The notes: generated by a model not told the origin, from the letters alone. Shown: positions 36 to 59,296, counted from the stretch's first letter. The stretch: 64,000 bases of DNA from Candidatus Obscuribacterales bacterium (GCA_965228855.1 CBDDIJ010000002.1:416001-480000), one strand, 5' to 3'. Numbers and translations are program-made.

Positions 36-89
36 TTGTCTATCACTCGTTGACGGATTTTCGAAAATTCGTCAACGAGCGATAGACAA
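36..89. repeat. 54-bp palindromic element, copy 1
   Basis: TTGTCTATC A CTCGTTGACG GA TTTTCGAAAA TT CGTCAACGAG C GATAGACAA is a near-perfect dyad; companion TATAGTAG at 168-175. Confidence 0.9.
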
Positions 90-194
90 AACTATTCAAG
101 CGAAACTGACGGCGAAGCGAAACATGCACACAATCAGCCTTACCGACTCAAAGCAACCACGAAGGCATATAGTAGAGTCTTGGGGGAGAAGCAA

Positions 195-302
195 AGGGCA
201 TAGCGCAACGCACTCCGAAAAGTACGCTGGCTACGCCCTCTGCAACCCCTCGCCGAAGGGCATAGCGCAGGACTCTCGTTACAAGAGCCCTGGCTACACC
301 CT
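195..302. repeat. Two tandem related stem-loops downstream of the operon
   Basis: AGGGCATAGCGCA...CTGGCTAC(G/A)CCCT at 195-239 and 257-302, with different loops. Confidence 0.7.
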
Positions 303-399
303 CCGGGTCAGTTGGAGTTTTAACCTGCTGGTTTCGACGCGCCCCCGGCAGGGTTTGGCGTCGTCCTCGCAGGTACTCAGGCGGGTCCCGATATTGCTA

Positions 400-1551
400 T
401 CAGGAATCCGCGCCTTCGCCTCCCTCATCTTCGTCGTCGATCTCGAGGACAACGTCCGTCTTGACTCGACGAGGATCTTCCCCATCGCTGAAGTTGTCGA
501 CCTTGCGCGGCTCGAGCGAAATCTCGTGGCCGTTGGGCAGGCAGCCCGGCTCGGTCTCCGTGTACGGAACGGCATCGACCACGAACGAGCGTCGACCGTC
601 GTCGCCCCGGATGACCGGAACCGACACGCCGAACAGTTCGTTGTGGCAGAGCACGCCCGTGAAGAAGCCGGTGGCGCGGCGGTCGTAGTCCCGCAGGTGG
701 CCCATGCGCGCCGGATCCCAGAGGTAGCCGACTTCATGGTACTCGTGGAACTTCAACTGCAGACCAGGCAGCGTGTGGTCCGGCGTGGTGTGCCAGCCCG
801 ACGCGACCTTGCCGTCGAAGGAGCGAACGATGTTGAGCTGGCGCTGCTCGTGTTCGACACCCGCAGCGTCTGCACCATTCCGGCGACGGAAGTCACCGAT
901 CATGAACAGCGTGCGCTTGTTGACCAGAACAGCCGAGCCGTAACGCAGCACGTGAATGTTGGGATTCTTGTGCAGGTTGAACAGCACGTCCAGGCTCTTC
1001 GGGAGCGAAATCGTCGGATCCGACGGATGCTCCTTCGCCTTCGGATGGCCGACGACCCAGGCGTCCCAGACGCGCTTGGTCTGCTGGATCCATTCCATCA
1101 GACGAATTTCGTTCGGCATCGACAGGTGCGTCGCGGAAGGGATGTAGATCACCTTGCCGCCGGACGCTTCCTGGAACTGCTCGATGAACTTGCCGCACAT
1201 CTCGCCCAGCGCGAGGACCTGGTCCTCGAAGCCGCCCGCCGCCATGGCTTCCGCCACTTCGGGAGCGTCCGGGTAGTCGTGCAGGTAGTTCTCTTCGTCT
1301 TCACCGAAGCGCTTGAAGGCGTCCTCGTCGACGATACCACCGAGCAGAAAGACAACCTCCGGTTTCGTGTCCCGGAGGTAGTTGAGCACCTGCTCCACCA
1401 TGGAGCGGTCGTGGTGCGGGAAGTACATGTGAGCGAGAGCGACCACGCGCATCCCATCCTTCAGCTGCATCGGGTAGATGCCAGCCTCGTGGAGAGACGT
1501 CTTCGGATCCTCCTTCACCGTAACCCGCTTGTGATGTGTGCCTCTTGGCAT
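400..1551 (-). CDS. Calcineurin-like metallophosphoesterase-fold protein, predicted catalytically inactive
   Basis: Start MPRGTHH with upstream GGAG; colinear similarity to 2374-3369 but metal ligands replaced (AHMY, GGIVD, PSATH, SFDGK). Confidence 0.75.
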   Translation of the reverse strand: MPRGTHHKRVTVKEDPKTSLHEAGIYPMQLKDGMRVVALAHMYFPHHDRSMVEQVLNYLRDTKPEVVFLLGGIVDEDAFKRFGEDEENYLHDYPDAPEVAEAMAAGGFEDQVLALGEMCGKFIEQFQEASGGKVIYIPSATHLSMPNEIRLMEWIQQTKRVWDAWVVGHPKAKEHPSDPTISLPKSLDVLFNLHKNPNIHVLRYGSAVLVNKRTLFMIGDFRRRNGADAAGVEHEQRQLNIVRSFDGKVASGWHTTPDHTLPGLQLKFHEYHEVGYLWDPARMGHLRDYDRRATGFFTGVLCHNELFGVSVPVIRGDDGRRSFVVDAVPYTETEPGCLPNGHEISLEPRKVDNFSDGEDPRRVKTDVVLEIDDEDEGGEGADS

Positions 1552-1567
1552 AACAATAACTCCTAGG

Positions 1568-2347
1568 TTAGAGGAGCAGCCCGGCCGCGTCGAGCTTCTT
1601 GTAGAAGTCGATAACGGTCGGAGCGAGCTGCTCGCGGTCGTTGAGACGGAGAACGTTGGGCGCCTTGATCCCACGGTTGTAGGATTCGGGCACGAGGATC
1701 GCAGCGTGGGCCATCTGGCCGACGCCAACCGCGGTTTCAGCGGAGTCTTCGACGATCAGAGGGATGTGCTCCTCCGCCATCTCGTACTTCTTCTGACCGG
1801 GGGTGACGAACCGAACGTCGACGTCGGGGTTGAGCCCGAGGCGAGCAATCAAGTCCTTGGTGACGCGCTGCGCGATGCCGGTGCCGTAGCCCTGGGCATG
1901 GTTGTCGATGCGCATCTCGGCCGCACCCGGAACCCAGGTCCAGACCTTGACGTCGATGCCGGCGTCCTTGATGGCCTTGATCGCTTCGACCACGCCGGGG
2001 TACGGCTGCAGGTCGGCGTAACCACCCTGCGCGCGACGCGCGAAGGTGATGAAGGCCTCCAGGAATTCCTTGCCGGACAGAGCGTTGTCCGGGTCCATCT
2101 GCATGTGGTAGAAGGCGGTCTTGCGAGCATCGATGTTGTGACCGAAGTGCAAGTTGCAGAACCCGGCGAAGGCGCCGAGCCAATCGACCAGCGTGTTGTG
2201 CAGGTCGAGGACCACCGCGCGCTCCCAACGGAAGTCGGGATCGCTCGGGGTCAAAACGCTACGCGGAGGCCAGTTCGGCGCCGTCGCTGCGGGAACCGCA
2301 ACGACCTTCGCCCGGCGACCGCTCGTAGATTTCTTCTTGGAAGTCAT
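1568..2347 (-). CDS. HAD-superfamily 5'(3')-nucleotidase-like protein
   Basis: VVLDLHNTLVDW (motif I variant), LQPYPGVVEAI, VWT, KK, IVEDS; AGGAG RBS. Confidence 0.75.
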   Translation of the reverse strand: MTSKKKSTSGRRAKVVAVPAATAPNWPPRSVLTPSDPDFRWERAVVLDLHNTLVDWLGAFAGFCNLHFGHNIDARKTAFYHMQMDPDNALSGKEFLEAFITFARRAQGGYADLQPYPGVVEAIKAIKDAGIDVKVWTWVPGAAEMRIDNHAQGYGTGIAQRVTKDLIARLGLNPDVDVRFVTPGQKKYEMAEEHIPLIVEDSAETAVGVGQMAHAAILVPESYNRGIKAPNVLRLNDREQLAPTVIDFYKKLDAAGLLL

Positions 2348-2373
2348 GTTGATGATCTCCTTTGTAAAATCGC

Positions 2374-3369
2374 CTAGCGGTCCGGCGAACGATAGGTCTT
2401 ACCCGCGAAGGTAAAGCCCATCTTCGGACGGCCGTCGACGGTGACTTGTTTGATGGGAACCGGCTGCAAGTGAACCTTGCCGCCAACGATCTTGCCGACG
2501 CCGATGGCCTCGTGCCAGTTGTTGGTCAGGTTCGAGTACGCCAGGTACGGATGGGTCGGGTCGACCAGGTGACCGAGCTCGATGGCACGGATTTCGCCAT
2601 TGGTCGTCTGACGGACCGTCATGCCGACGCGGTGCGTGTGACCGGTCGAGGTCGAGCGGCCCGACATGTCGGCGTCAGCGCGGGGGCTGGCAGCCGGCTT
2701 GGGGCGCACGATGCGACCGTGGTGGAATTCCATGTCCCCGTTGATGAGGATGGCACCACCGAAGCCGCCGCGCTCCGCCAGGTCGTAGATGAACGTCACC
2801 GGATCACCAGGCTTGTAGCCCATCAGGCCGTGGAACGACATGATCGGCTCGCGCGTGTTGAAGTCCAGGATGTTCGCGACAGCGGGGGCGGGGTCGGACA
2901 GATACCGCAGCATCCGATCTTCGTGGTTGCCCATGATGTAGAACACATGGATGCAGTTCGAGATCTTGATGAGCGAATCGACCAGACGACGGGTCTCATC
3001 CAGCTCAGCCTGCTGGTTGACGGCAACGCGAGGCGGCCGTGCCCAACGGGAGAGAGCGAACACATCGGCGACGTCGCCGATGAAGATGATGATGTGCGGC
3101 TGGTAGTCCTTCAGGAAAGCTTTGATCGCCCAGAGAGCCAGCTTGTCGTGCGCCGGGACGTGGATGTCCGGCAGAACGACGATGCGGGTACCGTCGGGCA
3201 GATCGAGGGGAAGAATGCCGGCGTACGAAAGAAAGCCGAGGCCCTTGTTGCTGTTGCGAGCAGCAATTTCGTTGGCGAGCAGCTGACGAATTTCAGCGGG
3301 CTCCGCGCCAGTAGCCTTGGCCAGCTTGCGAGCCGCATCTTCCAGAGAAGACGCGTGTGTCTTGTGCAT
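2374..3369 (-). CDS. Calcineurin-like metallophosphoesterase (phage-type)
   Basis: Complete motifs DIH, GDVAD, GNHE, HHG, GHTH. Confidence 0.85.
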   Translation of the reverse strand: MHKTHASSLEDAARKLAKATGAEPAEIRQLLANEIAARNSNKGLGFLSYAGILPLDLPDGTRIVVLPDIHVPAHDKLALWAIKAFLKDYQPHIIIFIGDVADVFALSRWARPPRVAVNQQAELDETRRLVDSLIKISNCIHVFYIMGNHEDRMLRYLSDPAPAVANILDFNTREPIMSFHGLMGYKPGDPVTFIYDLAERGGFGGAILINGDMEFHHGRIVRPKPAASPRADADMSGRSTSTGHTHRVGMTVRQTTNGEIRAIELGHLVDPTHPYLAYSNLTNNWHEAIGVGKIVGGKVHLQPVPIKQVTVDGRPKMGFTFAGKTYRSPDR

Positions 3370-4234
3370 GGCAATTTACTCCTTCTCGCCTCAGTCATGA
3401 TTCGGAGGCGTGGGTTAAGAACTTCGAGTCTCTGGTGTGCAATGGGCAGCGCCAGCTCGAAGTTGGAAATCGCAGGCCTCATGAGAGGCGAGAATTGTTG
3501 TTGCGAGAGAAACAGACCTTACGACCCATCTCTCACAGGGAGGAAAGACCCGCTTGCCGGAGCAAGGTCTTCTGGGTTGGTGGAAACGATGGTTGTGCTT
3601 GAATTTGGGAAGTGGACAACCGGTACAGCGATTTGGAACGAAGATACCTAGAGACTAGGAAAACCACAGAACCGCGAACAATGAAGATTTCGGTAATAAT
3701 TGAAAAGCTGAGTTCCTTCTAATCCCGCACCAGGGTTGCCAAGAAGCCGATCCCCGCCGGCACACATGCGCTGAAACCGCGCGCACAAGCCCTATCTCAC
3801 GCGCGCGAAAGTATTCTTGCCAGCAAAACCTTTAGCTCCAAATTCTCTATAGCTTAGAAAAGCGAGGACAAACTGACAGTTAGCGAGGCTAAGAAAGCTC
3901 TTCCAGCAAGCTTTTCCAGACGGACAAGATGATACTGATTTCAGCTTTTGTCACTGGTACTTACTGGTTATGCCAACTGTTAAGCCTTCGCGCTCGATGC
4001 GCGAATCCCAAAGCTCGCCAAGCGTAGCGCATTAATGCCGACTAACCAGGACTGAAAGACACTCACATTCTGCAGTTCGGTTTGGCATTCCAGAAGCACT
4101 ATTTACTAAACCGCATTCAGACGCGGTTTATTTTTCCATCCGGCGAATGACACCATCGGCGGTATCAGAAGCAAAGGCGCGACAATTTCGACCCGTTTCA
4201 TAATCGAGAGAATGCAACGGTTTATCGCTTACAA

Positions 4235-5224: not shown

Positions 5225-5721
5225 GCGTAAATTCTCGCAAAACAACCTTCCAGTAAGGAAAGTGATGGGCTCCGAAAAGCCAGCGAATATTCGGTCTAAT
5301 TACTAAGTCGCCCGAACGGGCAGCCGTATCCATAATACACAGTTAAAACCATCAAGCAACTATTACATACCACGCCGGACGCGCAAATCTCGCCGCGCAA
5401 GCCAGGGTTTCCGCCCATCATCGCTCTGCCTCATCAGTCTCAGTCAGGGTGTTCAATCTGAAGGAACGCAAGGGGTACTCCGTCCAAACAAAAATCTGCC
5501 GTCTCATAAACAATTACTGGAACTCAAACATTTAATTCAAAAACCGAGACCAACAAAAAGATTCTGGGCAATCTTCCAGTAGAACAAACTACCACCTGAC
5601 AAAACTGTCCGAATCGAACCGCTTCGCAAGAGGCGGTTTTTCTCTTGCCTGGGCAAACGGCGTCGTTCGACCGGGTTGATCCCGCTAGCGCAATCGATTA
5701 GCAAATGTTTTTAAAGCAAAC

Positions 5722-5743
5722 AGCCGCCTGTCGACAGGCGGCT
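5722..5743. terminator. Hairpin downstream of nrdJ
   Basis: AGCCGCCTG-TCGA-CAGGCGGCT. Confidence 0.55.
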
Positions 5744-5861
5744 ATTCACTTGCTTTCGGTCAGTCGGAAATGACTTTCTTTAGCGATGCGGTGGTCGGGG
5801 TCGATTCTATTTCCGGCAGTGCGCTATTCGCCCTCACTGCCGGGCAAAAACCGATCGCCGA

Positions 5862-9747: not shown

Positions 9748-10076
9748 TATATTTTGCCTACTATATCCGAGAGTGTCTTGCTACTCCCGTCAAATCCGTT
9801 CAGGATAGGCATCTCGGGAATTTTGATGCGATCGCAAACCAGATAAACTGGTGATTTGTCTATCGCTCAATGCCAGTTTTGAGCAGATCCGTCATTCAGG
9901 GATAGACAGAATTCAAAACTTGTCTACTATATCCGAGAGTGTCCCGCCACTCCCGTGAAATCCTTACACGATAGGGTTTTCTGGGATTTTGACAAGATGG
10001 CAAACCAGGTAAACGTGGTTACTTGTCTATCGCTCAATGCCAGTTTTGAGCGAATCCGTCGTTCAGGAATAGACAG
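9748..10076 (+). repeat. Two tandem ~166-bp units, each CTACTATA plus 54-bp palindrome (copies 2 and 3)
   Basis: CTACTATATCCGAGAGTGTC at 9758 and 9924; palindromes at 9856-9909 and 10023-10076. Confidence 0.9.
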
Positions 10077-10306
10077 AATTCACGGTTCGTCCCGTATAAA
10101 GATCGTTCTAAAATAGTCCGTGAGATTCTCGCGGTGGAAGCAAGCGGCCATGGCTTGGCCGCCAGGCTGTCAGCTCACAGGCTAACCGTGCTTGGCTTTG
10201 GACAAGAGCCATCGCTCTTCTAATTCCGGTTTCAGTCTCGGCTTAAATTGTAGTTACTCCAATTTAAGAGGAGAACGTTCATTTTACAGATAACGTAAGA
10301 ACGTCC

Positions 10307-10467
10307 TTGTCTACGCCAGATAGACGATTTTGGCGAATTCCGGCATTCTGGCATAGACATACCTTGCCGTTCCTTCTGTATCGCGGAGTCCACGTTCGCG
10401 CATCGCGCCAACTGGAGCCAACTGCCGAGGCTGGTTCCGCCGGAGACACTATGCCTCTCTATAGTAG
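10307..10467 (-). repeat. 54-bp palindrome copy 4 plus CTACTATA motif (minus strand)
   Basis: TTGTCTACG..GACG..CGGC..CATAGACAT at 10307-10360; TATAGTAG at 10460-10467. Confidence 0.85.
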
Positions 10468-10487
10468 AGGTTTTCAAAAGAAGCCGA

Positions 10488-24195: not shown

Positions 24196-24502
24196 CCCTA
24201 CTACTCCATTTAAAACTGCTAAGCGTCCAAGAACGCCTCCCTACCGAGATCCCTTCCTACTACTCCATATAAAACTGCCAAGCGTCCAAGAACGCCTCCC
24301 TACCGGGATTGCAGGGGACGAGGGAAATTCCACTCCGGAGTTTGGCTATCCTGCATAGACGGATTTTCGAAAATCCGTCTATGCAGCGTAGCCAAAGCCA
24401 GGGTCAAGGCGGCTGCGGTTCCGATTGGAATCGCGCGATGGCTGACCCTGCTGCCCTTCTGAGTCTTAACACGCTCGAAGATTCTAGTACTTCCTATAGT
24501 AG
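24196..24502. repeat. 59-bp tandem duplication, 54-bp palindrome copy 5 and inverted motif
   Basis: CTACTACTCCAT.TAAAACTGC.AAGCGTCCAAGAACGCCTCCCTACCG at 24198 and 24257; palindrome 24342-24395; TATAGTAG 24495-24502. Confidence 0.9.
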
Positions 24503-27708: not shown

Positions 27709-27725
27709 CCAGCCCAGCCGCTCAT

Positions 27726-27972
27726 CTACTAAAGTATCTAGTTTCTAAAACAGTCCAAAAGCAGTCATGGCAGCTGGTTTCCACTTTCACGTCCGTCACT
27801 TGCTCCGCATTGGCGGCGTGGCGATGACGCTTTCGGCGAAATTCGTCAATGCCCGATAGACAAGATCTAGTTACAAGCATGCTCGATTGAACGGAGAAAA
27901 CCGGAAAGCATTAGCCCCACAGCTGCGCTGGACTCCGGCGGAGTTCGAAGCCCCCGCTATATTACCTAGTAG
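27726..27972. repeat. CTACTAAA / 54-bp palindrome copy 6 / CCTAGTAG element between convergent units
   Basis: Motif 27726-27733; palindrome 27810-27863 (degenerate left arm, GACG/CGTC, GATAGACAA); inverted motif 27965-27972. Confidence 0.75.
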
Positions 27973-33798: not shown

Positions 33799-34201
33799 CA
33801 GATTTTTCTACTATACAAGCTAGTCTATGTTATTAGCGCCAGTCTTCTTTTCGGGCACTTCCAAATTTGCCTACTATAGAAGCCAGTCTGAACTATTAGC
33901 GCCAGTCTTCGTTTCGGTCACTTTAGAGTCTCAAGCTTACGCGCTGTCTATCCCTCGTTGACGGATCAGATCTTCCTACTATACAAGCTAGTTTAAATTA
34001 TTGGCGCCAGTCTTCGTTTCTGTCACTTTTAGAGTCTCAAGCTTACGCGCTGTCTATCCCTCGTTGACGGATATTCAAAAAAGCGGCAATGAGGGATAGA
34101 CAGGCGAGCTGATATGCAGCCTCCGAGCTATAGGCAAATCCCCGAACTCCTGCTCGGTAGGGGAACCTCAGCTTAACCGTTAATACTATGCTCTTTAGTA
34201 G
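33799..34201. repeat. Three nested direct repeats beginning near CTACTATA, a truncated palindrome, full palindrome copy 7 and inverted motif
   Basis: CTACTATA at 33808, 33871 and 33976; half palindrome 33944-33966; full palindrome 34050-34103; TTTAGTAG 34194-34201. Confidence 0.9.
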
Positions 34202-38161: not shown

Positions 38162-38730
38162 CCAACTCTCCCTACTATATGCCGACATAATCCGTAATTC
38201 CCCGACACGATTTTGATAGGCGCCAAATCTTTCTACTATACGCCGACATAATCCGTAATTCCCGACAAGCCTTCGGATAGGCGTTCTTCGGCGTACCGGC
38301 TTCAAGCCAACCACCCTTTGGCAATGGTGCGTAGACGATTTTCGCGAATTCCGTCATAGCCAGATAGACAGCGGCGACTTTTTACGCCCCTGCCAGGGTT
38401 GCAGAATCATCCCAACCCCGGGTCAGCTCAACGTTTTGAGCCGGAACAGGCTTATCATACTGTATAGTAGTAAGATTTGGTCGCCTTTTGGCAATGGTAC
38501 GTAGACGATTTTTGCCAAATGCGTCGTAGCCAGATAGACAGCGGCGACTCTTTGCAGCCCTGCACGGGTTGTGGAATCGCCACAATTCCCGGTCATCTCG
38601 ACGTTTTCAGCCCGAAGATAGCTACCAAGCCGTATAGTAGTAAGATTTGGTCAGAATCATCCCAACCCCGGGCCAGCTCAACGTTTTAAGCCGGAACACG
38701 CTTATCATGCCGTATAGTAGCAAAAGTTTT
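38162..38730. repeat. Cluster of CTACTATA motifs and 54-bp palindromes (copies 8 and 9)
   Basis: CTACTATA at 38172 and 38233; palindromes 38318-38371 and 38488-38541; TATAGTAG at 38463, 38633 and 38713. Confidence 0.9.
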
Positions 38731-48905: not shown

Positions 48906-50060
48906 ATGATGGAAGCCATCTACAATTGGCAGTTCATCCGCTTCGCCGAGCCGGTCTGGCTCTGGCTGGCGACTGGACTGATTTTACTGATTCCGATGTG
49001 GAAACGTCTGCGGCCCGCGCTCGCACACACGCACACGGGCATGCATAAGATCCGCTCCTCGAGCTGGCCGACAAAGGTCTGCCTGGCACTCTTCGCCGGC
49101 ACATGGCTGGCTATGACCGGCGCCATGATGAAGCCTCGCCTGACCCATCAAGAGATGCACGAGTACCTGGAGACCAGGGACTTCGTCATCGGCATCGACC
49201 GCTCAGGTTCGATGTACAGCGCCGACATCGAGTCTGCGGAGCTGCGCAGCGAGATCGACAATTTCGAGCAGGGCGAACGCGACAACGAGACGAAGCTTCG
49301 CGAGAAGTTTCCGACGCTGTACCCGTACCCGGCCGAAGATCCAAGCAAGCAACAGAAGGTGGAAGCAGGCAAGGTACAGCGCTTCCAGCTAGCACGCTAC
49401 GCCGCGTACCAGTTCCTCAAATCGCGTCCCGAAGGTGACCGCGCCGCCATGTTCACCTTCGACGACGAACCCTACTGGTCCTGGCCGCTCGGCAAGGACA
49501 TCAATGTAGTGCTGCGCAAAATTAGCGAGCTGTCGAAGGCATCCGGCGGCGGCACCAACTTCGACGGACCGTCCGGTTCCAACCGCCAGAAAGGCGCTTT
49601 TCAGGCGACCCTGGAGCAGTTCGATTCGCTCGGTCAGGCGAAGACGAAGGTGATCGTGTTCATCTCGGACGGCGATGCCGGAATCAATGAAGAACGGCAT
49701 CAATACTTCGTCGACCGCATGAAGGCTGAGGGGTCGAACATCCACATCTTCGCGCTCGTCTGTGGTTCACCCTCGCAAATGACCAATTCGAGCACGCAGT
49801 CTCTGCGCCGGCTGGTCGAGGAAGTGAACCCGAAAGATTGGCGCGACGCGCAAGGCGAAGCAGTCGACGCAGTGATCTGGGCGGGCAACGGCGAAGCTAT
49901 GAAGAAAGCCTTCGATCGAATCAGCGACCTGGAGAAATCCACGGTCGAACTCGAGGCAATCGAGAGCCACAAGCCGGTCGAGTCGGCGTTCGTGATGCTC
50001 GCCCTCGTGCTCGGTGGTCTGTTCCTGGGACTCTGCTACCTGTTCAGCGAGTCGTTCTAA
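48906..50060 (+). CDS. vWA domain membrane protein (BatA-like)
   Basis: F.EP.WLWL N-terminus, IDRSGSM MIDAS, GGT, ISDG, C-terminal TM. Confidence 0.85.
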   Translation: MMEAIYNWQFIRFAEPVWLWLATGLILLIPMWKRLRPALAHTHTGMHKIRSSSWPTKVCLALFAGTWLAMTGAMMKPRLTHQEMHEYLETRDFVIGIDRSGSMYSADIESAELRSEIDNFEQGERDNETKLREKFPTLYPYPAEDPSKQQKVEAGKVQRFQLARYAAYQFLKSRPEGDRAAMFTFDDEPYWSWPLGKDINVVLRKISELSKASGGGTNFDGPSGSNRQKGAFQATLEQFDSLGQAKTKVIVFISDGDAGINEERHQYFVDRMKAEGSNIHIFALVCGSPSQMTNSSTQSLRRLVEEVNPKDWRDAQGEAVDAVIWAGNGEAMKKAFDRISDLEKSTVELEAIESHKPVESAFVMLALVLGGLFLGLCYLFSESF

Positions 50061-50079
50061 CTTCACTGGAGACATTCAC

Positions 50080-51045
50080 ATGAAATTCATTCGTAACTGG
50101 CTCTGGCTGCTGCCTGCGCTTGGCGCCGGCATCCCCGGCAGCCTGGCGGCGGTGAGCTTGTTTCAAGGCGACTTCGCAGCGGCGATCAACCGGGGGCTGG
50201 CAGCGCTGGTCCTCTTCGCCGTCGGCACCGTCGCCGCCGCGACCTTCTCCGGGGCGCTCAAAGCCTGGGCGGAATGGCTCGGAGACTCGCTTATCGCCAT
50301 GTTCAACTTCCGCGCCGGCGGCATCGCGCACCATCTGTGGCAGGTGCCCGTCGGTCTAACCGCGCTGGCCGGTCTCTATGCCGGCTTCAAGCTGCACTTC
50401 AACACAGCGACGCTCATCCACGTTTATGTGCTGGTCGGCGCCGTGTCCTTCCTCGCGCTCTACGGCGCCCTCTATCTGCTCCACACGAAGTGGGCGAAAC
50501 CGGCGTTCGTCGGGGCGGGAGTGGTGGTGCTTGCAATCGGTTTATACCTGTGGAGCTATCGCTCCGCGCAGGTCGACCTGTACAACGCCGGCATCGCCGC
50601 GATGGACCAGGGCGATATTCCGACAGCGGTAAAACTGTTCGACGCCTCGGTCGCGGCTTACAAACAAGAATCCAGCCGGTCCCAGCTCGCCAGGCTGATT
50701 CTGCCGGAACCGAATAAGGATCTGGAAGCACGCGCGCACTTTCACAAGGGCAACTGCCTGGTCAAGGCGCGCAAAACCAAGGATGCCGTCAAGGCTTACG
50801 TCGAGAGCCTGCAGTCCAATCCGGGCAACTGCTTCGAGGGCATCACCCTGGAGGAAGCGGCCAGTCGGTACAACGACGCGCTGCAAACCATGGCAAATCT
50901 GGAGAAGCTTTTCTCTTCGGGTCAGAGCGGCGGCAAAGCTACCGGCAACGGCAAGCAACGCGGTCAGGGTCAACCTCAGCCCGGTCCGTCGCGAGACCGC
51001 CAGCCCAATCCCGGCGCGGGACGTCAGCCCCGAGACACTCTGTAA
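50080..51045 (+). CDS. Membrane protein with TPR domain (BatC-like)
   Basis: TM bundle, LYNAG, AHFHKGNCL, NLE, Gln/Gly/Pro tail. Confidence 0.75.
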   Translation: MKFIRNWLWLLPALGAGIPGSLAAVSLFQGDFAAAINRGLAALVLFAVGTVAAATFSGALKAWAEWLGDSLIAMFNFRAGGIAHHLWQVPVGLTALAGLYAGFKLHFNTATLIHVYVLVGAVSFLALYGALYLLHTKWAKPAFVGAGVVVLAIGLYLWSYRSAQVDLYNAGIAAMDQGDIPTAVKLFDASVAAYKQESSRSQLARLILPEPNKDLEARAHFHKGNCLVKARKTKDAVKAYVESLQSNPGNCFEGITLEEAASRYNDALQTMANLEKLFSSGQSGGKATGNGKQRGQGQPQPGPSRDRQPNPGAGRQPRDTL

Positions 51046-51083
51046 TTCACCACTAACCACAACCTCTCAGAGGAGGGTTTTAC

Positions 51084-52253
51084 ATGAATATGTTCGGACG
51101 ATTCGTCGAATTCGAGCATCCGGAGTACGTCGCCTACTCCTGGCTGCCTGTGCTTCTCGTGGTGGCGATCTGCGTGGCGAGCTGGTACTCGCTCAAGCGC
51201 TTTCAGAAAGCCTACGCCAACCCCGAGCACTTGCGAAGCAGCACCCGCACTTCGTCTGTGGCGGGGCTGTTTGTCAAAACCGTCGGCTGGTCGCTCGTCA
51301 CCTTCGCATTGTTCGCCGCGCTGGCCGAGCCGTTCGAGAAGAACGCCGCCGTCACCGTCCCACAGGGCAGCTTGCACGTGGTCGGAGCCTTCGACGTCTC
51401 CAAATCCATGGCGGCTGAGGACTATCGCTTCAGCATGCCGACGCGGGACGGCGGACCGCCAATCGGACCGTGGGGTTCACGCCTGCAGAAGGCGAAGACC
51501 GAGTTTACCGAGCAAATCTTCAAAGTGATCCCCGGCAACAAAATCGGGCTCGTCACCTACACGGCCGACGGCTATCCCCAGGCGCCTCTCTGCGAGGACT
51601 ACGGGACTCTGCGCTATCTGCTCCACAACAGTGGATGGATGGGGATCGGCTCGGCACCGGGTGGCGGGTCCGACTACGTGCAAGGGCTCAGGCTGTCGAT
51701 CCATACGCTGCGGCGCGACTTCGACAAAAACAAACGTCAGGTGATCGTGCTCTTCTCGGACGGCGGCGCGCCCACGTTCGACAATCAGGAGGACACCGCC
51801 AACTGGCAGAAGGAGCTTGGCGAAACGCTGGAGGAACTCAACGCGTTGCGCACCGCTTGCGGTGGCAACCTGTCAGTCGTCGTCATCGGAGTGGGCGGGC
51901 ATCAGGACATGATGATTCCTGTCTACAACGAGCGTACCGGCGAGCGCTTCGATTGGTTTCCCCTCGATAAAGAGGAGAAGGAAAAAACCAAGATCGACGA
52001 AAGCGGTCTCAAGGAACTGGCCGCTAAGGTCGGGGGCACCTACGTCTGGCTGGACATCTCGGAAGCGACGAAACTGCCGCTCGACTGGGCGTCGGTTATC
52101 GGGGGTCAGAAGACCGTACAGGGCAAGCTTCCGCTCGCCAGCTTCCCGGTTGCCTTCGCAATGATCGTCGCTGCCCTGCTCATCCTGCGCGGGCTATTCC
52201 GCCCGGCTCACCAGATCGCCGCGCGACCGGTGCAAATCCGCAAGCGCCCTTGA
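51084..52253 (+). CDS. vWA domain membrane protein (BatB-like)
   Basis: FDVSKSMAAED, SRL..AK, APL..DY, LFSDG, IGVG. Confidence 0.85.
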   Translation: MNMFGRFVEFEHPEYVAYSWLPVLLVVAICVASWYSLKRFQKAYANPEHLRSSTRTSSVAGLFVKTVGWSLVTFALFAALAEPFEKNAAVTVPQGSLHVVGAFDVSKSMAAEDYRFSMPTRDGGPPIGPWGSRLQKAKTEFTEQIFKVIPGNKIGLVTYTADGYPQAPLCEDYGTLRYLLHNSGWMGIGSAPGGGSDYVQGLRLSIHTLRRDFDKNKRQVIVLFSDGGAPTFDNQEDTANWQKELGETLEELNALRTACGGNLSVVVIGVGGHQDMMIPVYNERTGERFDWFPLDKEEKEKTKIDESGLKELAAKVGGTYVWLDISEATKLPLDWASVIGGQKTVQGKLPLASFPVAFAMIVAALLILRGLFRPAHQIAARPVQIRKRP

Positions 52254-52361
52254 AGATGTTTCGGAACTGAATTTCTTACAGGCGGAGTCGCGTCTGACTT
52301 CGCCTTCCTCTAGGTCGGGCGCCACCAGTCGTGGTGCCTATTTTCTCAACGGAGTTTTGAT

Positions 52362-53387
<1,026 letters not shown>

Positions 53388-53529
53388 GTCAATCACCCAG
53401 AACCGCAACCTGCACCACATGCGGTGCAGGTTCAAACCGGAGGCGCGAACCAGCCGGTGAGAATCGGCTGTTCGCGCCTTTCGGTTGGGTTTGTTTCTAA
53501 AACCTTCTCTCTGAATGAACGGAGACAAT

Positions 53530-54516
53530 ATGTCGAACATCTTTTCGCGCCTCGGGCTCGGCGCAGACTCAGAGTCCCCGGCTTTGCTCGATGAGGACGT
53601 CGACGCCCGTATCGACGATATCCTCAGGCAATCGGGCGAAGGCTTCGTGGCAATCGGCTTCCGGTCTCGGTCGTTCCGCACCGGTTCTCGACGCACGATC
53701 TTCACGGGACCGTCCGGCGACTTCTACAAAACCGCAGAATACGTCCCCGGCGAGCACGAGCAGCGTCAAATCATGGGGCGTGCCACCGCTCGAACGGGAG
53801 GGCGACAGAAGGTCGTCAAAATTTGCCGCCCGGACGCGCAAACGACGGTCTACATGCTCGCCGACGTCAACCGCACGCTCGACTTCGGTCACAGCCGGGA
53901 GAGCAAGCTGCAACTGATGGCACGCTGCGCCGCCACCGTCTGTCTCTCCTTGCAGGAGACGCAGGATCTGGTGAAGGCGGCTCTCTATGCCAACGAAAGC
54001 GTGGCTTACAGCATGCCGCGCGCCAAGATTCCGAATCTGGCCGTCCGCCACATCATCCGCGAGATCATCGACCCGGTGCACTCGACCGGCAAGCTGGATT
54101 CCGGTCTCGAAGAGGCGCTTCGCATCGTGCCGGCCTCCGGTCAGCGTGAGGTCGTCATCCTGTCCGACTTCCTCAACACGACCGAACAGCAGTACCAGGC
54201 GCTCGCCGACCTCGCCCGCCTCAACAACGTGCGCGCAGTCGTCATCCAGGACATCCGAGAGCGCGAGCTTCCCGATAAGGGCGGCTTCATCCCGCGCCCG
54301 CTCAAAGTGTTCGACATGACGACCGGCAAACAAGTCACCTGGTGGCTCACCGAGTCGAACCGGCGCAAGTACACAGCCGAGTTCGAAGCGCATGAGGAAG
54401 CGCTCAAAGCATTTTTCGAAGAGAACCTCATCCGGTACGAAATCGTCCGGACCGACGATGAGGACTCGGTTCCCAAAGTCATCGGGTTGCTCAGCAGCCC
54501 TCCCCTTCTTAGCTAA
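53530..54516 (+). CDS. DUF58 family (vWA-like) protein
   Basis: GDF..AEYVPG..R.I..ATAR, ILSDFL, D..E; follows moxR. Confidence 0.8.
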   Translation: MSNIFSRLGLGADSESPALLDEDVDARIDDILRQSGEGFVAIGFRSRSFRTGSRRTIFTGPSGDFYKTAEYVPGEHEQRQIMGRATARTGGRQKVVKICRPDAQTTVYMLADVNRTLDFGHSRESKLQLMARCAATVCLSLQETQDLVKAALYANESVAYSMPRAKIPNLAVRHIIREIIDPVHSTGKLDSGLEEALRIVPASGQREVVILSDFLNTTEQQYQALADLARLNNVRAVVIQDIRERELPDKGGFIPRPLKVFDMTTGKQVTWWLTESNRRKYTAEFEAHEEALKAFFEENLIRYEIVRTDDEDSVPKVIGLLSSPPLLS

Positions 54517-54526
54517 GGAGATTCGT

Positions 54527-55642
54527 ATGAAGAACAAAGCTCTTTACCTGGGCGCGCTCCTGAGCTGGCTTCTCATGCCGGTTCTCGCGCAAGCGCAGAT
54601 CACTCCGCCACCACGGGCGACGCCCGCGGAAGTGAAGCGCGGCTGGTTCGAAAACCGACGCATCATGATCGAGGTCCGCACCGACAGCGCCTTCGCCCCC
54701 ACAGGCGAAGGACTGCGCCCCGGAGCGCCCTCGACGTTTCCATTCGGCGAGCACTTCGGCATCCGCATCGGCAACGTCGTTCCGATGCGCGTCAACGTCT
54801 ATGTCCTCAAACCGCAGCAGGGCGAACGCAAGATCGACATCGACTTCAATCCCCTGAAGGCTGGCCGCCTGTCTATCGACCCGAATCCGGATCCGGACTT
54901 CCGCCTCGTGTCGCCCCAACTGCTTCCGAAAGGCGAGACGCCGGTTTCCATGGCAGCCGCCAAAGAAGTGAAACTTCAACTCGGCGACAACGAATACGAC
55001 GCCGAGCTGTATGAAATCCGGCTCTACGTGCAGACTATGCGCCAGCCCCAGCCGATGCGCTTCGCCATCGAGTTCGCCTACGCGGCAAGCGAAGTCAACG
55101 GCGCTCCGGACTGGAAGCGCATCTGGACGCCGGACTTCATCCTCTCGATGTCGAAGACCGCCGACGACGGTTCAGACCTCTCCGCCGGCAACACTAACTA
55201 CGAGGCTCAGCACCCGCCGTTCACCGCCGGGCTGTTCTTCGTAATCCTGGGCACGATCTGGGTGATTACGCCAATCAGCTACATCGCCATTCGGGCGATT
55301 CGACGCAAACTCATGAAGGAGCGGCTACTCGACCCAGAGGAGCTTGCCTGGCTGAAGCTGGAACCAATCTTCGCATCCGCCCGGGTCGAAAACGGTTATC
55401 GCTTCAGTGAGTCGCAGGTTCGCGGTGTGGTGGGCACGGTTTTGCAGTACGTCGGAAAGCCGACACTCACCTCCCGACAGCTCGACTCGCTCGTTTACGA
55501 AGACGACGACGGCGAGTTGCTCATTGCGATTTTGCGACCGCTCCTCGAAGGTGTCATGGAAGGCAAGCTCAAAGAGCCGCTTAGCGCCGAAACCGGCGCG
55601 CGCATCGTCGAACGCATCGGTCAATTGATTCCGCGAGCATAA
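54527..55642 (+). CDS. Secreted/membrane protein (BatD-like position)
   Basis: Signal peptide, beta-rich domain, TM helix, C-terminal helical domain; AAGGAG RBS. Confidence 0.65.
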   Translation: MKNKALYLGALLSWLLMPVLAQAQITPPPRATPAEVKRGWFENRRIMIEVRTDSAFAPTGEGLRPGAPSTFPFGEHFGIRIGNVVPMRVNVYVLKPQQGERKIDIDFNPLKAGRLSIDPNPDPDFRLVSPQLLPKGETPVSMAAAKEVKLQLGDNEYDAELYEIRLYVQTMRQPQPMRFAIEFAYAASEVNGAPDWKRIWTPDFILSMSKTADDGSDLSAGNTNYEAQHPPFTAGLFFVILGTIWVITPISYIAIRAIRRKLMKERLLDPEELAWLKLEPIFASARVENGYRFSESQVRGVVGTVLQYVGKPTLTSRQLDSLVYEDDDGELLIAILRPLLEGVMEGKLKEPLSAETGARIVERIGQLIPRA

Positions 55643-55795
55643 ATGTTTTTCCCAGCAGGCGAATCATGGAAGCGGCGCTTGTTGCGCCGCTTTCCATGCC
55701 TGCTTATTGGATAGATCCTGATCATAGTGAGGAGCAATTGCCGCGGCTTTGCAGCGCGGTCCCTTTGCGTCTCACGATTTCCAAAGGAATTTCTG

Positions 55796-57436
55796 ATGAA
55801 ACCTTCCAAGATTCTCGGTGGTGGTATCACCGGAGCAATCGCGCTCCTCGTGACGCTCGCCGGGTCGAGCTTCGCGCAGACGCCGACGCCGGCCGCGCCG
55901 TCCATGCACGAGCTGCTTCAGGGAATGAAGTTCCCTCTGGCCGTGCCGGTTCCGGAGAAGCCGGATCCACTTCGATTGTATAAAGAGGCGATTGATACGA
56001 TTGCAAAACAACACATCGCGCTGGCCGGCTACGCCGAGCCGGAAGCGACCCAGGTCGAGACCATGGTCAACGGTTGGTTGGGCCGACCGTCCCGGGCTCG
56101 CAAGACTAAGATGGACGCTTTTCTCGAGAAGTGGGGAACGCCGCCTCGCGAGCTGAAGACACTCGACGACGCCGATACGGCTATTCAAGAGGCGCTCAAA
56201 GACCTCGATTTCCGCTTCGACTCCTACCTCGTCCCCAAGGACGTGAAGCTCGAAGACAAGCGAATCGACAACACCAACATCGGTATCGGCGTCATCTTGA
56301 AGCTCGAGGGCATGCAGGAGCTGCTCAAGAGTCTTCCCCAGGATGCCACCGAAGAACAAGTCGACAAGGTGCTCGTCATCTCCGAGAAGAACTTCCTCTC
56401 CGCCAAGCCGGTCCGTAACAGTCCGGCGGAGAAGGGCGGGATGCTCGATGGCGACGTCATCAAAGAAGTCGCCGGCAAAGCCATTCTCGGGATGCAGTAC
56501 ACCGAGGTGATGAAGCTCATTCGGGGCAAGCAGGGCACCAAAGTCGATATCACTGTCGAGCGGGTGGAGAGCGGCAGTAAAATCACCAAGAAGCTCACCA
56601 TCACTCGTGATGAGTACGAGGTTCCGGTAGTGACGTTGAAGCATGTCGGCAACGACGTCTGGCATCTGCATCTGGAAACCTTCGCTGCCCGCAACGCCGC
56701 CAAGGATGTGAAAGAAGCGCTGGACGAGGTCGTGAAGAAAGGCGGCAAAGCCCTGATCTTCGACCTGCGCGACAATGGCGGCGGCTTGGTCGACCAGGCA
56801 ATCGATATCGCCACGTACATGCTGCCGGAAGGCACCATCGTCACGCAGCAGCAAAGGCTGTTCGGCGGTCCCGGTGTGGTCGAGACCCAGAGTCACGTCA
56901 CCAAGCACGTCATGCTCGAGACTCGCCCGCAACCCAACGGGCAGTTGCCGGTAATCAAACCGCGCACGCTGGCAGTGCCAGCTGACATGCCCATCGTCGT
57001 GCTTGTAAACGGACACAGCGCCTCCGCATCGGAACTCGTGTCCGGTGCGCTCAAGTTCAACAAGCGTGCGAAGCTCGTCGGTACGCGCACCTTCGGCAAA
57101 GGCGTCGGTCAGGCGCTTCTAGATCTGCCCTATGGTCGGCGACTGCACGTCACTTCGTTCTACTTCTTGCCTGACGACCAGTTTACCGACTGGGTCGGTA
57201 TCGAGGTAGACGTGGAGTCGAAGCTGGCCGACGATGCGAAGAAGGACACCCAGCTCGAAGACGCCGTCAAGGTCGTCACCGAGATGTACGAAAATGGCGT
57301 GCAGGAGCGAGCCGCCAACGCCAAACGCGAAGAGGAGATTCGCAAGCTCAATCGTGAGCTGTGGCAGAAACGCCTGGAGCGCCAGAAGGAGATGGAGGAA
57401 GCGCTCAAGAAGAAAGAAGCGAAGCCCTCGAAGTAA
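55796..57436 (+). CDS. S41 carboxy-terminal processing protease with PDZ domain
   Basis: GIGV, SPAEKGG, DLRDNGGG, SASASE, TFGKG. Confidence 0.9.
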   Translation: MKPSKILGGGITGAIALLVTLAGSSFAQTPTPAAPSMHELLQGMKFPLAVPVPEKPDPLRLYKEAIDTIAKQHIALAGYAEPEATQVETMVNGWLGRPSRARKTKMDAFLEKWGTPPRELKTLDDADTAIQEALKDLDFRFDSYLVPKDVKLEDKRIDNTNIGIGVILKLEGMQELLKSLPQDATEEQVDKVLVISEKNFLSAKPVRNSPAEKGGMLDGDVIKEVAGKAILGMQYTEVMKLIRGKQGTKVDITVERVESGSKITKKLTITRDEYEVPVVTLKHVGNDVWHLHLETFAARNAAKDVKEALDEVVKKGGKALIFDLRDNGGGLVDQAIDIATYMLPEGTIVTQQQRLFGGPGVVETQSHVTKHVMLETRPQPNGQLPVIKPRTLAVPADMPIVVLVNGHSASASELVSGALKFNKRAKLVGTRTFGKGVGQALLDLPYGRRLHVTSFYFLPDDQFTDWVGIEVDVESKLADDAKKDTQLEDAVKVVTEMYENGVQERAANAKREEEIRKLNRELWQKRLERQKEMEEALKKKEAKPSK

Positions 57437-57521
57437 CTCCGGGACTTCGCGCGCGTTGATTTCTCACTGACACGGGGAGCCGCATTCTATGCGGTTCCCC
57501 CTTCTCATAAAGGAAACACCT

Positions 57522-59057
57522 ATGTCGAAACGACACACGTTTGCGCGCGCTACCAGGCGCGCCCGGGCTTACAACGCCACGCTGGCGTTGCGCGCCATTG
57601 GGCTCGGTCTCGTCGTGACGCCGATTATCGTATTGGCACTCTTCTGGGCCGGACGACCTTCACCTGTCGCACCGCCTCCACGTGTCGGGGTGGCACTCGT
57701 CTCGGAATTCGCCCCCAGCGCCACTGCCCAGGATCTGTCGAAGGTCTTCAAAGACGTCGCGCTGTCTACCGAGACGCGCTTCATCGAGCGCGACAAGGTC
57801 GTGCCCACGCTCGCGAGAATGCGCAAGGAGTACAAGGACGGTGCTCTGCAAAGCAAGCAGCAACTCGACCAGGCGCTCGTGGACTACCTCTCCACTCTCA
57901 ACGACCGCTACGCCACGGTCATGTCGACCCAGGAATACATCGACCTTATGGTCGGTATGTCCGGGCAGCAGGTCGGCGTGGAGCTCAACTTCACCCAGGA
58001 TTCGGCGACCGGCAACTGGGTTGTTCAGCAGATGGCGAAGGACGGACCTGCGGCCCAAGCCGGAATTCAGGTGGGCGACCTGCTGGTCTCCATCGAGGGC
58101 TACCATGTCGAGGAACTGAAGAAGATCGGAAACGTCGGGGAGCTCTCGCAGTTTCTGCTCTCGCAAGCGGGCGTTCTGGGCAGCAAAGCCAAGATTACGC
58201 TGCGGCGGGGAGGCGATGTTTTCGACTTCGAAGTCGAGCGCACTATCATCAAAACCCTCCCTGCCATCGCGGTCCGCGACATGGACGGCGGCTTCGACGA
58301 GGAGGCAGCGATGATGGGCTTTCCGAGCGGAATCTCATCGGACGGACAGTACATCAAGGTCAGCCACATGGATGGTGACAACTTCTTGAGAGAACTGGAA
58401 GGTATTGTCAACAAGCTGGTCGAAGACGGCGTTCCCGGTGTTGTACTCGACCTGGCCGATGTGACAGGTGGCAACGGAGACGTCGCCATCCAGGCAGCGG
58501 CGCTGTTTATCGACTCCGGCGTGATCGCTCACTGCATCAAAAACGTTGAGGGTGATGCCATCGAGATGAGCACCTACAGCGTTCGCGACCACAAAGTGTA
58601 CCGGAGCGTGCGCGGTCCATTCCGCAAAGCACCTGACGGCAAGCTCGTTGCGGACGAAAGCGTCAAGGAGTCAGAAGAGGCTTTGCCCTGGAAAGCCGGC
58701 GTGTTCAAGGGCGAAGTGGTGGTGGGAGTCAACGGTGGCACTCAGGGAGCAGCGGAGCTTCTCGCCGGAGCCATTCAGAAGAACAAACACACCATGGTCG
58801 TCGGGACTGACGTGACCTTCGGCAAGGGCATGACGGTGACTTACTTTCCGGTTTCGCCGGATCACGTCGTGCGATTCTCGACCGCGGTCTACCTGCAGCC
58901 TGACGGAGCGTCAATCGAAAAGCGAGGCATTATGCCGAATGTCGGAGTCCAGGAATTCGAGTACAATCGGGCACTGATGCAGGTGCTCGAGCACCGTCTG
59001 CGAATCGTGCCCTACCCGACGGGACCGGTCAAGCCTGGAACCGGCAGCGACAAGTAG
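57522..59057 (+). CDS. S41/PDZ paralogue lacking the catalytic serine
   Basis: PDZ (GPAAQAGI..GD), DLADVTGG, TQGAAE instead of SASASE, TFGKG, GIMPN. Confidence 0.8.
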   Translation: MSKRHTFARATRRARAYNATLALRAIGLGLVVTPIIVLALFWAGRPSPVAPPPRVGVALVSEFAPSATAQDLSKVFKDVALSTETRFIERDKVVPTLARMRKEYKDGALQSKQQLDQALVDYLSTLNDRYATVMSTQEYIDLMVGMSGQQVGVELNFTQDSATGNWVVQQMAKDGPAAQAGIQVGDLLVSIEGYHVEELKKIGNVGELSQFLLSQAGVLGSKAKITLRRGGDVFDFEVERTIIKTLPAIAVRDMDGGFDEEAAMMGFPSGISSDGQYIKVSHMDGDNFLRELEGIVNKLVEDGVPGVVLDLADVTGGNGDVAIQAAALFIDSGVIAHCIKNVEGDAIEMSTYSVRDHKVYRSVRGPFRKAPDGKLVADESVKESEEALPWKAGVFKGEVVVGVNGGTQGAAELLAGAIQKNKHTMVVGTDVTFGKGMTVTYFPVSPDHVVRFSTAVYLQPDGASIEKRGIMPNVGVQEFEYNRALMQVLEHRLRIVPYPTGPVKPGTGSDK

Positions 59058-59078
59058 TTTGAACGCGACACTACGGGC

Positions 59079-59113
59079 GGTGCCGAGGACGCAATCGCGA
59101 CCTCGGCACCTTT
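59079..59113 (+). terminator. Terminator-like hairpin
   Basis: GGTGCCGAGG...CCTCGGCACC followed by TTT. Confidence 0.65.
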
Positions 59114-59129
59114 GCCCCTCTCCGCTTTG

Positions 59130-59296
59130 CTACTATATGATCTCATGGCACCTCGCTACTATATGATCCCATGGAATCAAAATGCTCAGAGCCGTGATGG
59201 TGATTGGGTTTTTAGAAACGACATGCGCCAGACACAAAGCGTTTGTCTACGACTCATTGACGCTTTTCCGAAAATCCGTCGCTCTCTCGTAGACAG
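59130..59296 (+). repeat. Duplicated CTACTATATGATC plus 54-bp palindrome copy 10
   Basis: Motifs at 59130 and 59156; palindrome TTGTCTACG..GACG..CGTC..CGTAGACAG at 59243-59296. Confidence 0.85.

Follow-up and report, generated by a model that had tools for sequence, protein, structure and literature searches.

The window, i.e., the whole 64-kb stretch of DNA analysed here, carries ten ungapped copies of a 54-bp palindrome, found at every start listed in the preliminary description. Each palindrome is made up of two 17-bp dyads placed 33 bp apart, one in each half. Next to the palindromes lie 8-bp arms without sequence extension beyond their ends, reading CTACTATA inward and TATAGTAG outward, the orientation reported before. 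The first palindrome (36–89) has its left arm just beyond the window edge and an outward arm TATAGTAG 78 bp away (168–175, +). The palindrome at 9856–9909, first unit of a 167-bp local duplication, has an arm at 90 bp (9758–9765, −); the next one (10023–10076) is accompanied at 91 bp by the arm of the duplicated unit (9924–9931, −), and that at 10307–10360 by an outward arm at 99 bp (10460–10467, +).

Three further palindromes have convergent genes on either side. The left arm of the first (24342–24395) is a variant, CTACTACT, at 77 bp (24257–24264, −), with an outer copy at 24198–24205 (−) belonging to a 59-bp local duplication; its outward arm lies at 99 bp (24495–24502, +). The second (27810–27863) has an arm at 76 bp (27726–27733, −) and a variant outward arm CCTAGTAG at 101 bp (27965–27972, +); in runs X8 and X9, 109 other letters replace the 101 bases 27709–27809 on the side of arm 27726. 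The third (34050–34103) is flanked by an arm at 66 bp (33976–33983, −) and a variant outward arm TTTAGTAG at 90 bp (34194–34201, +), and local duplications of 63 and 105 bp, one nested in the other, add an outermost arm (33808–33815, −) and the arm of a truncated duplicate ending within a partial palindrome (33871–33878, −).

The palindrome at 38318–38371, first unit of a 170-bp duplication, and that at 38488–38541 each have an outward arm at 91 bp (38463–38470 and 38633–38640, both +). On the left side lies an arm 77 bp from palindrome 38318 (38233–38240, −), and a 61-bp local duplication, whose 61 bases are skipped by runs X8 and X9, supplies an outer arm (38172–38179, −); on the right side, a local duplication of 80 bp likewise has an outer arm (38713–38720, +). 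The last palindrome (59243–59296) has an arm at 79 bp (59156–59163, −), and a local duplication of 26 bp adds an outer one (59130–59137, −). The arm at 63988–63995 (−) belongs, as its left arm, to the copy that follows beyond the window (G000:C2:480073), 77 bp further on.

A weight matrix built from the ten copies, as the preliminary description had proposed, finds 210 copies in the genome of the host (G000, 95% complete), a non-photosynthetic relative of cyanobacteria; 209 of them score above 30 bits, and none above 14 bits was obtained from the reversed-genome control. The palindromes are intergenic in 199 cases, the remaining 11 falling within weak ORF predictions, and convergent gene pairs are their main setting. 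Arms on one or both sides, at about 65–100 bp, had been reported from the window; genome-wide, 114 of the 210 copies have an arm on one side and 67 on both, and the distances are quantised at about 66, 76–79, 87–91 and 98–101 bp (Rayleigh Z ~150 at a period of 11–11.5 bp, 242 arms). The CCAAA part of the reported arm motif is reduced to a weak preference. A bias of arms with respect to replication direction is weak (112/161 distal, 96/161 proximal, p 0.08), and arms inside arrays are split 24 vs 8 by replication direction. A possible likeness of the arm to the DnaA-trio was noted; no DnaA box with one mismatch or fewer was found around dnaA.

The spacers are variable in sequence, as described, yet not free: pairwise identity is 34–36%, with a weak AAA..TTT..ATACG consensus, and high-scoring pairs number only 12 among 241 spacers. 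Invariant bases of the elements are kept while the spacers drift neutrally. Compensatory changes between the palindrome halves, noted earlier, amount to a weak excess (symmetric pairs at 17.8 of 27 positions vs 16.7 ± 0.2 after shuffling of the halves among the 160 loci). A GTCAAT subfamily of 18 copies has arms at 2/18, yet it has formed 73-bp arrays. Viral contigs scanned for the palindrome pattern gave 0 matches, in an atlas search every match stayed under 0.9, and our literature search found no description of this repeat/nuclease system.

Located 313 kb outside the window, the gene at G000:C2:103074–103847 encodes a 257-aa phospholipase-D-type (HKD) nuclease fused to an XRE helix-turn-helix (PLD-HTH). 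It is bracketed by palindromes 102850 and 103885, both with outward arms, giving an arm–palindrome–gene–palindrome–arm layout that spans G000:C2:102755–104023. The predicted structure (pLDDT 94.6) matches NucT (Z 14.5, rmsd 2.2 over 132 residues), Nuc (Z 14.4) and BfiI (Z 12.0) in the nuclease domain and HipB/C.AhdI in the HTH domain. Residues H107-x-K109 and G121-S122-x-N124 are conserved in ≥90% of the 109 homologues compared, i.e., both the HxK..GSxN motif and the Nuc fold of the PLD superfamily are present; four more invariant Cys/His residues lie outside the active site. Codon differences between G000 and G007 (26 synonymous vs 5 non-synonymous) indicate purifying selection. Pfam, NCBIfam and PADLOC returned no named family beyond the two domains, and neither plasmids nor 300 other genomes of the phylum yielded a match to the protein.

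Pairing of gene and site recurs in other genera. With a criterion of 32–33 bp spacing and score ≥24, the spacing having been chosen after an earlier look at the loci, a double dyad adjoins 20 of 49 homologue loci, which are kin and include five from G000 or G007, vs 3 of 600 random G000 genes; at the other 29 loci a strong double dyad is absent within the flanks read. The cognate sites of relatives form dispersed families (3 copies in G005, 6 in G006, 1 in G002, 4 in G143, 8 in G146, 4 in G149 and 9 in G070; controls 0), and G059 and G074 are without the site and without a gene match among the matches listed. A quick tree, with G003 left out, contains three supported clades with one shared site type each, the sites tracking the protein tree; on this tree, the clade of the present gene occurs within the genus in G000 and G007 only, and these two are also the sole members of the genus with the expanded repeat. 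A second G000 paralogue has a site family of its own (44 copies), and a paralogue in G007 sits within a 10-copy array, with a solo element at the G000 counterpart. Arms beside other site families are weak (8 outward vs 2 inward in 64 flanks), as they are around genes of other families (14 outward vs 6 inward, p 0.12).

The elements are also places of copying. Local duplications were found at 88/161 clusters vs 9/120 control intergenic regions, and one of their ends is fixed, with junctions mostly 3–11 bp outside the arm. The duplication junction itself is scattered, and it often includes 5–10 bases that differ from both templates. An apparent cut right at the arm is a bias from fast-changing tail bases. 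Seven locus pairs share the palindrome, one spacer and the arm, with identity stopping a few bases outside the arm; five of these pairs are on C2, 190–810 kb apart. No target duplication of fixed offset was found in 71 two-armed elements, which show a small excess of flanking 3–5 bp matches; the copies may be too old.

The PLD-HTH protein very probably recognizes the 54-bp palindrome, and we lean towards a nick-and-copy role for it, in which cutting and mobilisation would be its own. As a whole, we favour, with some reserve, a system similar to REP/RAYT but run by a PLD nuclease. The core-plus-arm architecture suggested earlier is supported, as is its tie to the cutting or copying of DNA, by the helically phased arms, the fixed duplication end and the cognate nuclease gene. 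Each of the two 17-bp dyads, which are separated by three helical turns, would bind an HTH dimer. The nuclease domains would together make up a single active site and contact the arm via wrapping or looping of the DNA, which would explain the whole-turn arm spacing. A nick just outside the TATAGTAG arm would cause the site to be copied across the origin region: the displaced strand, held as a 5′-phosphohistidine intermediate, would be joined to DNA at a second nick, either nearby or far away, and recombination would resolve the far end at a variable point. Recombination between the gene-flanking palindromes may remove the gene, leaving a solo 225–250-bp element, or move cargo genes. Such chemistry has a precedent in BfiI, which forms a phosphohistidine–DNA intermediate that is then joined to a DNA 3′-OH (PMC2475615). 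An engineered PLD-XRE fusion cuts site-specifically 13–16 bp from its site (PMC2094064), whereas the nick predicted here lies near the arm, 80–100 bp from the palindrome. A more far-reaching version, which we put forward tentatively, would make this a new type of mobile DNA in bacteria, with the PLD/HKD-XRE protein as a metal-free histidine-linked transposase binding the double dyad, nicking at the phased arm and copying one-armed units and cargo; the site of one paralogue would have swept the oriC megabase, where it may now be a centromere for a chromosome lacking ParB.

The distribution of the copies is not explained by the nick-and-copy model: 174/210 palindromes lie at −717 to +327 kb (~1 Mb) around dnaA and the GC-skew switch, with a density of 16.6 per 100 kb in the origin region vs 0.5 per 100 kb. 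We also weighed a domesticated chromosome-organising mark, in which the PLD-HTH or a host protein coats this region around oriC and compacts or anchors it, the duplications being a side effect of stalled forks. Apart from the clustering, this idea draws on the conservation of sites between species (63/63 anchored clusters of G000 are found in G007, and 62/66 in the reverse direction), a stability that also implies that new insertions are rare, and on the retention of invariant bases beside neutral spacers. Neither a chromosomal ParB (one ParB_N match lies in a 727-aa frame on C4) nor an exact parS consensus was found. The chromatin protein TrmBL2 has the same fold (Z 11.6), and RacA likewise binds 25 regions at −412 to +200 kb (PMC4914108). 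However, the expanded family is missing from the other six genomes of the genus, which also need segregation, the other clades hold just 1–9 exact-pattern sites, and the catalytic motif is conserved. In addition, PLD-HTH genes themselves cluster near dnaA in G085, G012 and G013, so local spread can account for the clustering. We regard this explanation as unlikely on its own terms, and it is compatible with the nick-and-copy reading. The GC-rich origin domain is not explained by the repeats, since orthologues of repeat-free genomes have a like GC4. Tyrosine recombinases and SMC are common to genomes without the repeat. The raw Hi-C run comprises 8 reads, and a run with an RNA label probably contains DNA.

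Rather improbable, in our judgement, is that the palindrome is merely an autoregulatory operator whose copies were spread by host recombination, IS110 or a retron-type RT, with the nuclease acting elsewhere, e.g., in defence. The HTH does resemble HipB and the controllers of restriction-modification systems, whose operators are paired; many cognate sites, however, are placed downstream or flank the gene on both sides, unlike a promoter operator, and independent clades each have dispersed sites of their own. Seven IS110 copies sit in palindromes, but they interrupt rather than carry them. The retron-type RT of G000 and G007 (no match in G002, G005 and G006) adjoins one tandem palindrome copy only, and spacer changes are without strand bias (AG 224, CT 228); a retron or DGR-type RT was rejected as the driver on these grounds. 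The fixed junction near the arm would still need a cause. Least probable is a promoter module, in which outward transcription, in many cases antisense to convergent genes, would start from a phased TATAGT resembling a −10 box with the help of a palindrome-bound activator, junctions marking the transcription bubble: helical phasing and a junction placed where the start site would be agree with it, but arms face gene ends (145/205) more than gene starts (58/107), the gene-start ratio of TATAGTAG away from elements is 0.6 vs 3.96 for TATAAT, strong orphan arms are few (12), most of them belonging to elements that are broken or to paralogue genes, and a −35 box is not visible. On the gene-start and orphan-arm results, the arm was rejected as a host promoter.

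Most of the identities offered for the repeat in the preliminary description had to be abandoned. RYYYAAC and GTTRRRY ends typical of attC occur at 0/210 copies (G000 has 17 tyrosine-recombinase matches). A serine-integrase att site is contradicted by the resolvase domain PF00239, with 0 matches in G000 and G007 and 7 in G001. A single-stranded hairpin or REP proper does not agree with the weak covariation and the lack of a Y1/RAYT gene (PF01797 has 0 matches in the 95% complete G000, controls being positive in 6/14). A hairpin or RNA reading was rejected on the weak covariation and the Rfam results, with 0 matches in the window at gathering score and 0 over 6 kb with four palindrome copies at E up to 1. 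The Y2 transposase PF04986 has no match in any genome, nor in any control.

Enzymes known to mobilise DNA are, in their chemistry, of the DDE, DEDD, HUH, tyrosine, serine, Cas1 or reverse-transcriptase type. Mobilisation by PLD/HKD, if true, would add a chemistry so far represented only by the in vitro side reaction of BfiI. REP/RAYT logic would moreover have arisen a second time, independently, which offers another system for testing why repeats persist, with at least 20 natural protein–site pairs of a compact enzyme with a swappable HTH. Clustering at the origin of a genome without chromosomal ParB would make the transition from selfish repeat to centromere testable.

Bacterial MITEs share with these elements non-coding units of 225–250 bp, short inverted terminal motifs (here at the 67/210 copies with arms on both sides), gene-derived solo forms and cargo forms, but a MITE is not supported: copying is one-armed, the partner gene is not a DDE transposase, a fixed target duplication was not found in these perhaps too old copies, and there is no shared interior, given the dissimilar spacers. 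RacA/ram and the centromere-like parS also involve palindromes distributed asymmetrically over hundreds of kb around oriC (PMC4914108); unlike ram, the present sites are longer, bipartite, seven times as many, accompanied by a nuclease and confined to a handful of closely related species. The protein resembles Nuc, NucT, Zucchini and BfiI/BmrI in fold and in the single HxK..GSxN motif per chain (PMC2475615), and its domain order is that of the engineered BmrI198-C.BclI (PMC2094064), but it differs from PLD nucleases in its natural XRE fusion, four invariant Cys/His and own dispersed genomic sites. An XRE HTH and a four-block operator in two dyads are shared with HipB, C.AhdI, C.BclI and C.Esp1396I, whereas dyads 32–33 bp apart, a fused nuclease, sites often downstream and up to 210 copies are not.

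The closest parallel is REP/REPIN-RAYT, with hundreds of extragenic palindromes, tandem arrays and species-level specificity (PMC2817692; bioRxiv 10.1101/2021.07.10.451892; PMC3733652). In both systems a cognate gene, here PLD-HTH, is flanked by repeats and co-varies with them, and palindromes are targeted by IS110 elements (PMC1525189 for REP). By definition, a REP is a hairpin of 20–40 bp, one end of which bears a GTAG or CGTC tag left unpaired (PMC3733652), whereas here a 54-bp double dyad without hairpin selection has GTAG and CGTC words within its symmetric part. Moreover, the enzyme is PLD/HKD + XRE-HTH instead of HUH/Y1. The present system further differs from REP/RAYT in the phasing of its arms, in having several paralogues per genome, which are gained and lost, and in its strong clustering at the origin.

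All ten 54-bp palindromes of the window (C2:416001-480000) were recovered where the preliminary description had placed them, and the weight-matrix scan it proposed found 210 in the source genome G000 (Candidatus Obscuribacterales; 8.2 Mb, 95% complete, six contigs, among them C2–C5 below) and none in the same genome reversed. A further 18 half-sites represent broken or partial copies. One half reads TT-GKC-TAY-S-N3-S-RWT-GMC-GGAWTT-N4 and the other is its mirror image; each forms a 17-bp dyad, with 33 bp from dyad centre to dyad centre and an A/T-rich middle. Together with a gene encoding a predicted phospholipase-D-type nuclease fused to an XRE helix-turn-helix (PLD-HTH), this palindrome is a real, undescribed repeat-nuclease system. 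Changes between the copies had earlier been read as sometimes compensatory, an ssDNA hairpin being one of the readings offered. The hairpin reading fared poorly: covariation is strongest for adjacent bases and weak across the axis (symmetric pairs 17.8 of 27 vs 16.7 when halves are shuffled), so that a double-stranded protein site appears to fit the sequences better. The palindrome has no matching Rfam family.

A short arm motif, TATAGTAG, reads outward at about 66, 77, 88 or 99 bp from the palindrome. It is present at 177 of the 192 main-type copies vs 2 of the 18 copies of the GTCAAT subfamily, a variant that builds arrays with a 73-bp period. Between G000 and its close relative G007 (identity about 94%), divergence reaches 4.7% of positions in the palindrome and a median of 12.4% in the spacers separating it from the arm (77 pairs), compared with 12.4% at four-fold sites and 5.4% in the remaining intergenic DNA. 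The spacer thus changes in sequence, and its length, counted modulo one turn, is maintained. The arm does not behave as one of this genome's ordinary promoters.

The region C2:77k-1121k, surrounding dnaA (C2:793k) and the GC-skew switch, holds 174 of the 210 palindromes. Within this origin domain, sites occupy 52 of 74 convergent gaps of at least 200 bp vs 12 of 106 divergent ones, orientations resting on a simple in-house gene caller. The clustering may stem from local spread or from an acquired chromosome role. GC4 in C2:75000-1125000 is about 0.6-0.8 vs 0.55 outside it, the right-hand boundary being sharp, and that of relatives' orthologues is similar to the domain's; the start of C2 (C2:1-50000) and parts of C4 are near 0.9 and look acquired. 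A perfect 14-bp palindrome, AACCGATATCGGTT, has 32 copies in three tight patches (C3:954671-1068026, C3:1507498-1533295 and C5:1113354-1209370), one of them close to the terminus skew switch, and none in the origin domain. The sole ParB_N match in G000 falls in a 727-aa frame on the small contig C4 (C4:83406-83723).

Matches to the pattern among 41 genomes number 169 in G000 and 121 in G007, besides one 2.4-kb contig of G006 that is 86% identical to the orthologous G000 locus and is probably mis-binned. Within the genus (eight genomes), only G000 and G007 show a raised frequency of the arm word. A scan of 185,579 species returned 40 palindrome loci: 38 in a single Candidatus Obscuribacterales record, not counted as an additional genome, and two that share a contig in a bin labelled Acidobacteria, with flanks matching G000 loci. 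Two metagenome assemblies supplied 54 loci, of which 53 align to G000, mostly at orthologous sites.

The PLD-HTH gene (C2:103074-103847) lies in the order arm, palindrome, gene, palindrome, arm; its G007 sister is set within ten GTCAAT-type palindromes, at a locus occupied by a solo element in G000. G000 possesses five paralogues, all in C2 67k-1043k, and G007 four, with three in common, and three variable G000/G007 inserts at palindromes encode related proteins. The protein comprises PLD-like and XRE HTH domains, and a confident structural model predicts a Nuc/NucT/BfiI fold. In an alignment of 109 PLD-HTH proteins (homologue matches picked by length, fragments and long forms excluded), residues H107, K109, G121, S122 and N124 are kept, while C59, H99, C156 and C159 are invariant and perhaps form a zinc site. 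The paralogue at C2:917966-918766 has lost the HxK and GSxN motifs; G007 lacks it and has, at this position, two elements with a DUF421 gene between them. The homologue search yielded 268 clusters at E up to 1e-30. Matches occur in 55 of 104 family genomes, partly just via the PLD domain of longer proteins, and in none of 300 genomes from elsewhere in the phylum. The nearest PLD-domain relatives (P0008-P0012) lie in longer proteins that also carry helicase and topoisomerase zinc-ribbon domains and from which the nuclease probably arose; in genus g33 such relatives are frames of 900-950 aa.

Across the family, homologue genes adjoin double dyads of their own, 32-33 bp apart, located upstream, downstream or on both sides. 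A double dyad scoring at least 24 occurs at 20 of 49 homologue loci vs 3 of 600 random G000 genes, a count in which the spacing was fixed after first inspecting sites, the 49 loci are related (five from G000 or G007, two G007 orthologues omitted) and the controls come from G000 alone. Three site types, each searched in five genomes, form dispersed families with 1-9 exact matches, against 0 in controls. A quick tree (47 rows) supports three clades with common site ends: TACC (G143, G146, G149), TGTG (G005, G006 and, judged from a dispersed site, G002) and GTC (G000, G007). Genes close to dnaA are found in G085 (+28 and +152 kb on a 5-Mb single contig), in G012 (two of three) and in G013 (the gene that shares a contig with dnaA); that of G016 is 1 Mb off. 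A second double-dyad family, at C2:145608-145812 and about ten other loci, has 44 copies in 102-bp tandem units and belongs to the paralogue C2:1042618-1043475.

Palindrome positions are stable between G000 and G007: 63 of 63 anchored G000 clusters are found in G007 and 62 of 66 in the reverse direction, in a comparison covering 780 kb of G007 (98 and 12 clusters had no anchors). Copy number is unequal in 23-25 clusters. Of 161 clusters, 88 carry local duplications, vs 9 of 120 control regions, and this holds equally inside and outside the origin domain. One junction lies mostly 3-11 bp beyond the arm (52 and 31 pairs); the opposite end varies: of 51, 26 lie within the spacer, 9 within the palindrome, 11 at the palindrome's far end and 5 past it. 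Distant loci share a palindrome, one spacer and arm, the second arm being mostly unrelated, and at window copy 27810 the left arm is replaced in two other strains. Breakpoints lie within 250 bp of a palindrome in 17 of 38 large G000/G007 differences, this zone making up 5.5% of the DNA and 14% of gaps. Some of these differences are IS110 insertions; others are changes in arrays or consist of ordinary genes located between elements or next to them. Few new palindrome insertions are seen; the clearest example is an array of six copies in G007 whose corresponding place in G000 is empty.

Just before the window, a single-copy 424-codon frame (C2:414424-415695) lies between elements 414135 and 416036; at this place strain locus L130 carries a single, different element and lacks the gene. 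Tandem near-identical genes occur near elements at C2:936211-937684 and C2:74-77k (210 aa twice; 252 aa twice). All seven copies of two IS110-family elements lie inside the 54-bp palindrome, at a fixed position per type: the first, confirmed by Pfam, at C5:860951-862213, C5:1461412-1462676, C2:197207-198471 and C2:987643-988907, and the second, 52% identical to it, near C2:775k, 859k and 1121k. The two types lend themselves, as a pair, to predicting bridge-RNA targets. A retron-type reverse transcriptase (C2:944459-945628, or L089:9459-10628 in locus numbering; PADLOC RT_III-A, E 1e-79) is directly upstream of a tandem palindrome copy, with neither partner gene nor ncRNA recognised at the locus. 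The genes at window 48906-63933 (a MoxR/vWA/DUF58 cluster, two S41 peptidases, a catalase-like gene and an animal-type haem peroxidase gene) are ordinary neighbours.

Given the site plan, the gene-site pairing and the HipB/C-protein likeness, two HTH dimers of the PLD-HTH protein probably recognise the two dyads. The nuclease would nick DNA near the arm, as suggested by the duplication junction fixed there and by the conserved active site. Strand transfer to another DNA end may follow by analogy with BfiI, which bonds a histidine to the 5′-phosphate and is able to pass that end on to a DNA 3′-OH (PMC2475615). Several points weigh against this mechanism: an engineered PLD-XRE fusion cuts just 13-16 bp from its site (PMC2094064), new insertions are uncommon, the arms of other site families are weak, and no target duplication of fixed length was detected at elements.

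REP/RAYT resembles the palindrome-nuclease system in the working of a repeat with a cognate gene, but membership fails on enzyme type and on hairpin structure. The palindrome is neither an integron attC, a serine att site nor parS, and it does not look like a typical MITE. We found no description of the system in the literature searched, whose reach stopped short of most subscription papers and supplementary repeat catalogues; the comparison drew on PMC2094064, PMC3733652, PMC1525189, PMC4914108, PMC2475615, PMC2817692 and bioRxiv 10.1101/2021.07.10.451892. Because the tested families are all unfitting and the enzyme class is unrelated, we consider the system new in kind, a status that depends on the PLD-HTH protein mobilising the site.
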